From the UHGV virus genome UHGV-0095783: a stretch of DNA of 23,905 nt; one strand, given 5' to 3'. The notes below the pieces were generated by a model. That model did not search any database, was not told the DNA's origin, and saw only the letters and a list, made by a program, of their open reading frames with translations. How positions within the stretch are numbered: position 1 is the stretch's first letter; every line of letters starts with the position of its first letter. Both the position numbers and the translations under genes were made by a program. This DNA is from a virus. Shown here piece after piece: positions 1 through 3,113 of the stretch.

Positions 1-38
1 TACATTCAATCAATTGTTATCTAAGGAAATACTTACAT

Positions 39-317
39 ATGCAACTTACAAGTACTCGCAAGAAAGCGAATGCAATTACAAGCAACATCCTGAATCGAAT
101 TGCTGTACGTGGTCAGCGAAAGGTTGCCGACGCGTTAGGGATTAATGAATCGCAAATTTCGCGATGGAAAGACAGCTTTATCCCAAAGATGGCCATGCTT
201 CTGGCTGTGCTGGAATGGGGTGTTGAAGACGAGGAGTTGGCGGAACTGGCTAAGAAAGTAGCCAGAATGCTGACAAAAGAAAAAGCCCCGAAGAACGGCG
301 AATTCTTCGAGGCCTAA
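39..317 (+). CDS. cII: CII-like transcriptional activator
   Basis: 92-aa ORF whose translation (…[33 protein letters not shown]…) closely resembles lambda CII as recalled; the leader aaggaaatacttacatATG is lambda-like; the C-terminal tail differs from lambda. Confidence 0.85.
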
Positions 318-351
318 TGTAGAAAGACTGGATCAATCCACAGGAGTCATT

Positions 352-498
352 ATGACAAAACAACTCAGTCCTTACCAGGACAAAATTCACAAACACATAC
401 TACGTGATCGCTTCCTGTCCAGCTTCAAGCAGCCTGGTCGATTCCGGGCTGAGTTGGAAAAAGTGAAGCTGATGCAGAAGGAGAAAGGTCATGAGTAA
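352..498 (+). CDS. hypothetical small protein (48 aa), not in the supplied ORF track
   Basis: Read by hand: ATG at 352, TAA at 496-498, translation [48 protein letters not shown]. Good SD (aggag, 342-346) 5 nt upstream; its 3' end overlaps the ATG of the next gene (491) by 8 nt. No family recognised. Confidence 0.4.
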
Positions 499-1390
499 CA
501 TATCTAATCTAGCCGAAGCCAGAGAGGCCAGAAGGCTACAACAACCGCATCAAAGCAGCGGTAAGGGGTATGCCTTGCTGCACCGTAAAATTATGGATGT
601 GCCGTTTTACAAGGACGCAGAAGCTGCGCATCTGTGGGTTCACTTAATCCTCAAAGCAAAGCATACGCCTGAGTATGTAATGACTGACGCAGGAGAAATT
701 CTGGTAGGCAGAGGGAAGCTACTTGGCGGTAGAAACTCTCTGGCGTTTGAAACAGGGCTCAAACCAGATCGCGTTCAGTACCTGCTTAGAAAGTTCAAAA
801 AACTCGGCATGATTGACTGGGTTTCACACGGTAAATTCTCAGTTTTCTCGGTAGAGAAATATGACGATTATCAGTCAAATTTTGTACCAGCAGATTACCA
901 GCAAATTACCACCTCAAAGCCAGCAATACCAATGCCTGCAAGCAATACTGTACCAGCAGATTACCAGCAAATTACCACAGATAAAGAATATAATAATATT
1001 ATCTCTAATACTGACGTATTAGAGAGTACCGTAGCAGACAAAAAGTCTGACAAGAAAAAACCTTCCGTCAGCTGTCAGGATGTTGTCGATGCTTACCACG
1101 AAATCCTTCCTGAAGCTCCAAGAATCCGCGCACTGAATGACAAGCGTAAAAACCAGATCCGAACGTTCTGGCGCAAAGCCGGAGTGATAACCCGCCAGCT
1201 TGACGGGCATGGGTTCACGATGCAGGACTGGAGAAATTATTTGAGCTACGTTGGCGAAAATTGCCGATGGATGTTCGAAGAGCGCCCAAACCATCAACGC
1301 GGAACCGTCTGGCACAAAAAGGGATTTGATTTCCTGCTTAACGATAATACCTACCTGAAAGTTCGTGAGGGTGAACACGATGACCGATAA
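491..1390 (+). CDS. replication initiator protein, lambda O-like / P22 gene 18-like
   Basis: 299-aa ORF directly upstream of a DnaB-type helicase. SD aaggag 478-483. The middle of the protein carries a duplicated peptide ([10 protein letters not shown] x2) encoded by DNA iterons, as in ori-containing O genes. Confidence 0.8.
882..976 (+). repeat. origin iterons inside the initiator gene
   Basis: Exact 29-bp direct repeat gtaccagcagattaccagcaaattaccac at 882-910 and 948-976; each copy contains two ~11-bp subunits (taccagcaRat). An AT-rich stretch follows at ~977-1012. Confidence 0.7.
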
Positions 1391-2816
1391 TTTTTATGCG
1401 CCGCCCCATAGCATCGAGGCAGAGCAGGCGGTGATTGGTGGATTGCTTCTGGATGATGACAGCAGTGAGCGCGTCCAGAAAGTTCTGGCGATGCTGAAGC
1501 CTGATTCATTTTACAGCCGACCACACAAAATCCTTTTCGAAGAGATAACCAGAATGCACCGGGAGCAAAAGCCAGTAGATGGCCTGACGCTTTTCGATGA
1601 ACTGGAGCGTAAATCGTTAACGGCGTCTGTTGGCGGTTTTGCTTATATCGCTGAGATCGCAAAGAACACGCCAAGCGCAGCAAACATCGTTGCCTATGCA
1701 ATGCAGGTTCGTGAAACCGCAATGGAACGCTACGCCATCAACCGCATGACTGAAGCGACGGAATTGCTCTATTCCCGCAACGGAATGACTGCAACGCAGA
1801 AGTACGAAGCTATTCAGTCGATTTTCACGCAACTGACAGACCATGCAAAAACCGGATCGCGTCGCGGCCTTCGTTCATTTGGTGAGGTCATGGAAGACTG
1901 GGTTAGCGACCTTGAGAAGCGATTTGACCCATCAGGCGAACAACGGGGAATGAGCACAGGGATCCCATCGCTGGACAGGATGCTGTCACCGAAAGGTCTG
2001 GTGAAAGGCTCTCTGTTTGTCATTGGCGCTCGCCCTAAGATGGGGAAAACGACGCTATACAGCCAGATGGCAATCAACTGCGCAGTGCATGAGAAAAAGC
2101 CCGCTCTGATGTTCAGCCTTGAAATGCCAGGTGATCAGATACTGGAAAAACTGGTAGGGCAGAAGTCTGGTGTTAACCCGAATATTTTTTACCTTCCGGC
2201 GACAAATGACGCTGATGACGGCTATCAGGGTGATTACGATGGTGACTTCAACAGGGCGATCGAAACAGCCAATCGCTTGAGTGAAATCGACCTGCTTTAC
2301 ATCGACGACACGCCGGGATTATCTCTGGCTCAAATCGTCAGCGAAAGCCGTCGAATCAAGCGAGAAAAAGGATGTGTTGGCATGATTCTGGTCGATTACC
2401 TGACACTAATGACCGCTGAGAAGGCCGATCGCAACGACCTTGCTTACGGCATGATCACCAAAGGACTGAAGAACCTTGCCAAAGAGCTTGATTGCGTTGT
2501 TGTGCTTCTGACACAGCTTAACCGCGCATTGGAAAGCCGAACCAATAAACGCCCATTACCAAGTGACTCGCGAGATACAGGGCAGATTGAACAGGATTGC
2601 GATTATTGGGTCGGGATCCATCGTGAAGGTGCTTTTGATGACAGCGTTCCTCCTGGTGAAACCGAACTAATCCTTCGTCTCAATCGTCATGGCAATACCG
2701 GCACGGTGTATTGCATTCAGGCAAATGGCGCTATTTATGACACAGACCAACAGTCTGCTGAAATGCGCCGACGTGAACGCGAGGAACCGCAGTCCAAGAA
2801 GAAAGGAGGATTCTGA
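1380..2816 (+). CDS. replicative DNA helicase, DnaB family (P22 gene 12-like)
   Basis: N-terminus PPHSIEAEQAVIGGLLLD…GGFAYIAEIAKNTPSAANIVAYA parallels E. coli DnaB as recalled; Walker A GARPKMGKT. ATG 1380 preferred (gaggg SD 9 nt upstream); the track ORF opens at GTG 1365. Overlaps the initiator stop. Confidence 0.9.
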   Translation: MTDNFYAPPHSIEAEQAVIGGLLLDDDSSERVQKVLAMLKPDSFYSRPHKILFEEITRMHREQKPVDGLTLFDELERKSLTASVGGFAYIAEIAKNTPSAANIVAYAMQVRETAMERYAINRMTEATELLYSRNGMTATQKYEAIQSIFTQLTDHAKTGSRRGLRSFGEVMEDWVSDLEKRFDPSGEQRGMSTGIPSLDRMLSPKGLVKGSLFVIGARPKMGKTTLYSQMAINCAVHEKKPALMFSLEMPGDQILEKLVGQKSGVNPNIFYLPATNDADDGYQGDYDGDFNRAIETANRLSEIDLLYIDDTPGLSLAQIVSESRRIKREKGCVGMILVDYLTLMTAEKADRNDLAYGMITKGLKNLAKELDCVVVLLTQLNRALESRTNKRPLPSDSRDTGQIEQDCDYWVGIHREGAFDDSVPPGETELILRLNRHGNTGTVYCIQANGAIYDTDQQSAEMRRREREEPQSKKKGGF

Positions 2817-2846
2817 TGACCGTCTACATCACTGAGATAATAACAG

Positions 2847-2875
2847 GGGCTATTTACACAGTAGCCCTTTTTTAT
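2847..2875 (+). terminator. rho-independent terminator after the helicase gene (tR2-like position)
   Basis: 6-bp stem gggcta/tagccc (2847-2852 with 2862-2867), 9-nt loop, then a T7 run at 2868-2874. Confidence 0.6.
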
Positions 2876-2900
2876 TGGATTAAGAACGAGGGGGATCCTG

Positions 2901-3113
2901 ATGGACACCGTTAACGGAATGTGTTCAGACGCACCGCGTGCCAAAAAATGTAAGTGCGGAAAATCACCGACAATATTCGACATGGAGAACGGGTGCCAAA
3001 TCTACTGCGCTAACCACGCTGTTGTGGCGGCCGCGAATTATCGCAGTGCGGTAACGGAGTGGAATAACCTGAAATCTGTTAGAGAGGGAAGTCATGAAAA
3101 AACTAACCTTTGA
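2901..3113 (+). CDS. small Cys-rich protein; possible Lar-family restriction-alleviation protein
   Basis: 70-aa ORF with a CxCG…CxxxC…HxxV cluster and a following AVTEWNN motif that resemble the Lar zinc-ribbon family as I recall it. Sits where lambda has ren, between the replication genes and ninB. The family call is tentative. Confidence 0.45.
   Translation: MDTVNGMCSDAPRAKKCKCGKSPTIFDMENGCQIYCANHAVVAAANYRSAVTEWNNLKSVREGSHEKTNL

Follow-up and report, generated by a model that had tools for sequence, protein, structure and literature searches.

The 48-codon ORF ahead of the replication initiator in a lambdoid phage genome is the catalogued gene orf48 (DUF2740), probably tied to initiator synthesis

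The window, by which we mean the whole 23,905-nt stretch of virus genome UHGV-0095783 that was analysed, carries a run of early genes in which a cII-like activator, a 48-codon ORF, a replication initiator and a DnaB-like helicase follow one another on one strand, with the signals of an oop-like antisense RNA on the other (Table 1). cII ends at 317, leaving a gap of 173 nt before the initiator, of which 147 nt are taken by the small ORF; the ATG of the latter (352–354) is preceded by an in-frame stop with no other start codon between the two, and the frame closes with TAA at 496–498. The sequence-only reading of this DNA had described a 48-aa ORF here, with a canonical Shine-Dalgarno (SD) sequence, filling the cII–initiator gap and overlapping the initiator start by 8 nt, and its account of frame, start, stop, ribosome-binding site and overlap is accurate throughout. 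The window as a whole is a mosaic: the part with the terminase, portal, capsid and tail genes, about 71% of its length, is about 97.6% identical to lambda, while its cII–orf48–initiator–helicase module is of the HK620/HK022 type, which is ordinary mosaicism for a lambdoid phage. The initiator gene also holds 35-nt direct repeats (878–912, 889–923 and 944–978, with the core GTACCAGCAGATTACCAGCAAATTACCAC), whose position matches that of the annotated HK620 replication origin.

Table 1. Features of the cII–initiator region of the window, and of the alternative small ORF in related loci (last row; coordinates of those loci).
Feature	Position	Strand	Basis
cII-like transcriptional activator	39..317	+	Pfam Phage_CII, E = 4e-42
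oop-like antisense RNA, overlapping the cII 3' end	273..341	-	terminator hairpin 315..283, then T-run
Boundary block ACTGGATCAATCCACAGGAGTCATTATGAC, shared with lambda: oop 5' part, the -10 part of pO, SD, ATG and first codons	327..356	+	lambda alignment; PMC3349717
SD of the small ORF, AGGAG, 5-nt spacer to the ATG	342..346	+	sequence; lambda alignment, in which the same ribosome-binding site serves gene O
pO-like promoter of the oop antisense RNA, over the first 9 small-ORF codons	349..377	-	position-for-position transfer from the curated P22 record
48-codon ORF: P22 orf48 / HK620 hkaW / Pfam DUF2740	352..498	+	profile match, intact frame
CGUGAUC, codons R18-D19-R20, candidate 5' arm pairing with GGUCAUG 487–493	403..409	+	predicted fold
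Initiator SD, AAGGAG, 7-nt spacing, within small-ORF codons 43–44	478..483	+	sequence
8-nt overlap ATGAGTAA of initiator start and small-ORF stop; initiator ATG 491–493	491..498	+	sequence
Replication initiator, 299 aa, P22 gp18 / HK022 O type	491..1390	+	PHROG 345 'replication initiation O-like'
DnaB-like replicative helicase; start overlaps initiator stop by 11 nt (1380–1390, ATGACCGATAA)	1380..2816	+	sequence, profile match
Sf6 gp42 / HK97 gp53-like ORF	L230 (Sf6) 511–672; L232–L311; L231 (Yersinia phage) 499–663		PHROG 1331

The window's ORF is an already catalogued small early gene of P22-, HK620- and HK022-type lambdoid phages, orf48 or hkaW, and not a new one. Its peptide covers positions 1–43 of the 43 in the Pfam DUF2740 model (PF10872) at 99.4 bits (E = 8.9e-29), exceeding the curated gathering cut-off of 27, and PHROG 1913 was its sole match in a scan of the PHROGs (E = 2.7e-28). 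Its protein has the same sequence (100% identity) as the products of HK620 hkaW and of HK022, and shares 85% identity with that of P22 orf48. The HK620 record, 99% identical in DNA here, describes hkaW as 'unknown; similar to HK022 gp53'; in the curated P22 record orf48 stands between c1 and gene 18, its function likewise given as 'unknown', and the phage L record has the same orf48/oop arrangement as P22. Gene order (c1/cII, oop/pO, orf48, gene 18/O) and the 8-nt overlap are the same in P22, HK620 and HK022 as in the window, whose setting differs in nothing of substance, its phage having lambda-like late genes. The locus is also carried by 441 of 5,426 complete E. coli genomes, under the NCBI PGAP name 'DUF2740 family protein'. 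The earlier description of the ORF as unannotated therefore holds for the ORF track on which that reading drew and fails for the public phage and E. coli records. Annotation of orf48 goes back to the P22, HK022 and HK620 genome papers, the gene has its own Pfam family, and finding it once more is by itself of little weight.

NCBIfam gave no match for the small-ORF protein, and a PDB sequence search returned a chance match only (E = 1.4). A literature search found no functional study of orf48 or DUF2740, nor, among the papers searched, any that contains the string 'DUF2740'; in P22 papers orf48 is merely carried along in constructs. Two other uses of the name proved irrelevant: the 'orf48' of PMC12373910 is a screen index (gnarl1), in a paper whose supplements hold no DUF2740 sequence, and the 'Orf48' of the lambda interaction map (PMC3224144) is a lambda ORF, which must be a different one because lambda lacks the DUF2740 gene.

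The one function that databases do assign to the family is that of a tail protein, the label of PHROG 1913, which is repeated in RefSeq phage records (NC_002730, NC_019723, NC_019706, NC_014900, NC_011802, NC_047875 and NC_070949). Beyond this database label, nothing recommends such a reading: the product is a 48-residue basic peptide with a predicted helical-hairpin fold, its gene lies in every locus in the early-right operon, with cII on one side and the replication genes on the other and far from structural genes, the curated P22 and HK620 records refrain from the label, and the predicted structure matches no tail component. We give it practically no credence, and consider 'tail protein' on DUF2740 to be almost certainly a spreading mis-annotation. 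Pointing out this almost certainly wrong label, spread by PHROGs and RefSeq, is one of the two points of value that remain.

Alignment to lambda indicates that the small ORF uses the ribosome-binding site and ATG that lambda has for O. The block common to the window and lambda reads ACTGGATC(A/T)ATC(C/A)ACAGGAGTCATTATGAC in the alignment, and the Sf6 record names it 'bsq5; boundary sequence'; because it is shared, the small ORF begins at the very site from which lambda starts O. The lambda cII–oop/pO–O junction has the same block, SD and ATG, an oop terminator over the cII 3' end, and pO over the first codons of the downstream frame (PMC3349717). There the ATG opens O, whereas in the window it belongs to the 48-codon ORF, in whose 3' end a second ribosome-binding site serves the initiator. 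The lambda cII–O gap measures only 32 nt, with no ORF in it (PMC3349717), which bears out the earlier statement that lambda has no gene at this position; that lambda naturally lacks orf48 had already been stated by Hayes et al. 2012.

On the opposite strand, the P22 record (BK000583) has the oop promoter at 32346–32374 and the start of orf48 at 32349, so that the promoter overlaps the first orf48 codons, and its oop terminator overlaps the end of c1. A simple sigma-70 scan found no consensus match at the corresponding pO-like promoter of the window. The oop terminator hairpin is predicted at -27.8 kcal/mol (z = -4.0), and the oop 5' end is placed at about 341 by analogy with lambda, where it lies 11 nt ahead of the ATG. 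Rfam, run on positions 1–3000, gave nothing above threshold on the oop region, with a sub-threshold ctRNA_p42d match on the oop terminator (19 bits vs 50).

Judged by its pattern of substitution, the small ORF is a genuine protein-coding gene under purifying selection. We assembled 206 loci, made up of the window, HK620, phage L and 203 IMG/VR contigs, and the frame is intact and exactly 48 codons long in all 206; the loci were collected by peptide search, which biases toward intact copies, and the codon-position pattern is independent of that bias. Across the 53 distinct DNA sequences (22 distinct proteins), pooled Nei–Gojobori dN/dS is 0.29 in the annotated frame vs 0.41–1.54 in the other five, each of which is interrupted by stop codons in 52–53 of the 53 sequences, and variable sites are distributed over codon positions 1, 2 and 3 as 13, 11 and 29. 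Constraint is strongest in codons 11–40, where no DNA signal is known (dN/dS 0.16, pS 0.27, pN 0.05). Synonymous variation is low in the first ten codons (pS 0.11 vs 0.27 in the core), as expected if the opposite-strand pO constrains them. Constraint extends across genera: in a set drawn from Escherichia, Salmonella, Klebsiella, Pluralibacter, Citrobacter, Pseudescherichia, Atlantibacter and an Erwinia phage, the median dN/dS is 0.26, with synonymous sites near saturation (pS up to 0.9). Nearly all family members are 46–48 codons long, the most conserved stretch from Escherichia to Erwinia phages is a 15-residue motif, and the few frameshifted copies in the protein database all sit in clusters of 1–2 sequences. 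The sequence-only reading had proposed looking in related phages for tolerated frameshifts or stops and for codon-level selection, and with every locus intact and dN/dS at 0.16–0.29 the ORF came through that check.

These data also bear on whether the frame could have arisen by chance, or be conserved solely through the DNA signals that it overlaps (pO, oop and the initiator ribosome-binding site). Such an origin would account for the reduced or atypical variation at both ends of the ORF, where roughly the first nine codons lie under pO and the last seven under the initiator start signals. However, protein-level constraint is strongest in the central 30 codons, which are free of known signals, and the frame is kept in loci that have no oop/pO block at all. 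On this sequence evidence, namely the intact frames, dN/dS and the loci without oop/pO, we regard the idea as effectively refuted and assign it hardly any probability. The second point of value is that orf48 now has quantitative evidence for being protein-coding and positionally locked to the initiator start, which makes it a well-defined and cheap experimental target.

The DUF2740 family is very small: 5.8 billion proteins contain 54 clusters of it at 90% identity, every one from Enterobacteriaceae. An exhaustive profile search of 1.84 billion cluster representatives returned 19 matches at E < 1e-3, among which no true fusion to a larger protein was found, only frameshift artefacts; nor was the gene ever found elsewhere in a genome. 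Nine loci were found among 185,579 species-representative genomes, one of them on a 386-bp contig assigned to Xanthomonas pisi DSM 18956 (L216). That contig holds a DUF2740 fragment (residues 4–48) 100% identical to the E. coli version, and is probably assembly contamination.

The family has one invariant, which is that the gene lies directly upstream of the initiator and overlaps it. By clustering, the upstream gene is cII-like in 175 of 206 loci; some 20 or more others have in its place a gene for an unknown 178-aa protein, YdaT, a methyltransferase or a ParB-HTH protein; these loci lack the oop block, and their ribosome-binding sites differ. In five further loci the upstream call is a mis-called frame. 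One prophage (L144) carries an IS66-family transposase (803–2417) inserted in cII, just ahead of an intact oop block and DUF2740 gene. Adjacency of orf48 and initiator is kept in every context examined, including those with a changed upstream neighbour, and the downstream gene is a replication initiator in all but one evaluable locus: lambda-O-like in 125 and gp18-like in 80, two families without detectable similarity to each other. The third gene encodes a DnaB-like helicase in 139 loci; in 49 its product is a 512-aa protein.

At the junction itself, the ATGAGTAA overlap is invariant across the 206 loci, and in 204 of them it leads into a downstream gene of at least 80 codons; the exceptions are a truncated initiator (L023) and a locus in which the same junction leads into an inserted ORF (L105). 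Divergent family members have CATGGGTAA, CATGGATAA or a 4-nt ATGA instead: the overlap is 4 nt in P0057 and 8 nt in P0063 and P0055, in the latter as CATGGGTAA, and a Pseudescherichia copy has CATGGATAA. The GAGG/AGG core of the initiator SD is likewise kept in every sequence variant (AAGGAGAAA, AAGAGGAAA and AGAGGTAAA). AAAGGTCATGAGTAA (484–498 in the window, and its equivalents) is invariant in all 206 loci, and 1–3 nt beyond it the sequences diverge completely into the two unrelated initiator genes. Both initiator families begin with MSN, which places the joint directly after the overlap; AAAGGTCATGAGTAA behaves, as the upstream 'boundary sequence' does, as a sharply defined mosaic joint. 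A programmed frameshift fusing Orf48 to the initiator is unlikely: in the window a TGA at 470–472, 21 nt ahead of the initiator ATG, closes the initiator frame, with no recognisable slippery site in between. Overlapping stops and starts are in any case the rule in this operon, the initiator/helicase overlap of 11 nt being another, and the 8-nt overlap is to that extent less remarkable.

Phages with a 66%-identical initiator (Sf6, HK75, mEpX2, HK106 and others) carry Sf6 gene 42 in place of orf48. This gene encodes a 53-aa 'HK97 gp53 homolog' of PHROG 1331, without a Pfam family, and the genes of its family share 14 nt with the initiator in 79 of 81 loci. It resembles orf48 in occupying the same slot, in having the same boundary block and ATGACAAAA start, in being small with a fixed initiator overlap, in being partnered with the same two kinds of initiator, and in its restriction to Enterobacteriaceae; it differs in the length of the overlap and in the initiator N-terminus shared across it, MGVVKLADYR rather than MSN. 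A remote relationship of the Sf6 gp42 family to DUF2740 was considered and rejected (hhalign probability 0.45%). The layout that emerges is cII, the oop/pO block, then one small ORF, another or, as in lambda, none, an overlap, and an initiator of either type. Such an exchangeable slot favours a role that depends on position, and fits equally well a recombination-permissive site that accepts small accessory genes.

Accordingly, orf48 could be an independent accessory gene, for instance one of host takeover or anti-defence, lodged at a module boundary that permits recombination, with the overlap reflecting tight gene packing. This would suit its absence from lambda and its replacement by an unrelated family in Sf6-like phages, the lack of a tie to any one type of initiator, helicase or cII, the conserved blocks on both flanks that behave as mosaic joints, and the overlaps between other genes of the operon. 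It sits less well with a gene that is always directly upstream of the initiator whatever its upstream neighbour, that is never found elsewhere or fused to another protein, and whose product has no match among known defence and anti-defence models (PADLOC, anti-phage defence models). We consider this possibility unlikely, though deserving of some weight.

The sequence-only reading had called the overlap typical of translational coupling. As regards geometry this stands, since the stop lies near the downstream start and is kept there in evolution in 204 of 206 loci, with an invariant overlap; coupling itself is, from the sequence comparisons, likely as an additional role of the ORF. In common with gene pairs coupled by termination–reinitiation, the two genes have the same orientation, the first ends within a few nucleotides of the start of the second and contains its SD, and their overlap is conserved. 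Unlike in those pairs, the dependence of the downstream gene on upstream translation is here a prediction, the initiator has a strong SD, and the occluding helix that is predicted shows no covariation. Given the initiator's own strong SD (AAGGAG, 7-nt spacing), independent initiation would be possible, and with overlapping stops and starts routine in the operon, overlap alone is weak evidence of regulation.

An mRNA structure occluding the initiator start is a candidate only. In the predicted minimum free energy (MFE) fold of 318–520, positions 398–427 pair with 464–497 (z = -3.1), so that the initiator SD and ATG are buried against small-ORF codons 16–25, and occlusion of the same type is predicted in two of three very divergent members (L207 and L209). 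Opening the native initiator start site takes 7–18 kcal/mol, which in 8 of 9 sequences is more than the average over 100 synonymous recodings, the excess being individually significant in just 2–3 of the 9, which are related. Among 39 distinct sequences, a covariation test of the occluding helix found none, with no two-sided pair change and a score below that of shuffles; the 7-bp stem CGUGAUC/GGUCAUG does not vary at all, and many of the sequences disrupt the middle helix. We do not claim the structure, because of this absence of covariation.

Coupling would be the whole function if orf48 were a leader ORF that counts only by being translated, so that ribosomes arrive at the initiator start or expose it, and whose peptide has no function. 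The invariant overlap, the unrelated PHROG 1331 ORF with its own fixed 14-nt overlap in the same slot, the ability of lambda to manage without such an ORF and the predicted occlusion of the initiator start site are all compatible with that. A leader peptide should be free of amino-acid selection, however, and purifying selection on orf48 is clear (dN/dS 0.16 in the core and 0.29 over all codons, with a cross-genus median of 0.26 near synonymous saturation), along with a length fixed at 46–48 codons in nearly all members and a 15-residue motif conserved from Escherichia to Erwinia phages. We hold a pure coupling device to be very unlikely, and the earlier suggestion that the ORF might exist only to couple initiator translation is contradicted by this selection on the peptide.

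The peptide is basic, with 12 K/R vs 6 D/E counted from its sequence, and AlphaFold2, run with 22 sequences, predicts a helical hairpin in which helices 7–23 and 28–44 are joined by a KQPG turn (mean pLDDT 80, pTM 0.38). Structural comparison of the predicted hairpin gave no informative match. The small regulator that the sequence-only reading offered as its other alternative is neither favoured nor opposed by these sequence and fold comparisons. An RNA-binding hairpin like Rop was considered, since an antisense RNA gene adjoins, and was set aside for want of a structural match to Rop or other nucleic-acid-binding helical hairpins.

The explanation that we favour, and judge likely as a whole, is that orf48 is a real coding gene which shares the lambda O start site and ends on the initiator start, probably tying initiator synthesis to the upstream start and encoding a hairpin modulator besides. 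Ribosomes finishing the small ORF would stop 5 nt past the initiator ATG, where they may reinitiate, or may melt the structure that hides the initiator ribosome-binding site. Either route would tie initiator synthesis to the strong upstream start, itself presumably under the opposite-strand pO/oop promoter. The ORF would additionally yield a 48-residue basic helical-hairpin protein acting as a modulator of early replication, one that would be dispensable because orf48 is absent from lambda and replaced by an unrelated small ORF in Sf6-like phages. As its neighbours include two unrelated initiator families, two helicase types and several upstream genes, Orf48 probably binds a conserved host component or nucleic acid, and not one particular phage protein.

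A broader version of this proposal would make the slot ahead of lambdoid initiators an exchangeable 'gatekeeper', in which at least two unrelated proteins (DUF2740 and PHROG 1331) would gate initiator translation in cis, through an occluding mRNA structure combined with the overlap, and would also affect in trans a host factor, such as ClpXP, that sets initiator activity or stability. We think this distinctly unlikely. Lambda O is a substrate of ClpXP. On a single IMG/VR contig (L105), the ATGAGTAA junction leads into an inserted 59-aa ORF (2640–2819) ahead of the initiator, which encodes a ClpX C4 zinc finger (PF06689, E = 1e-15). Such a mini-gene would fit the gatekeeper theme, and since lambda O is degraded in this way, a possible decoy of the ClpX zinc-binding domain (ZBD) beside an initiator is worth a look.
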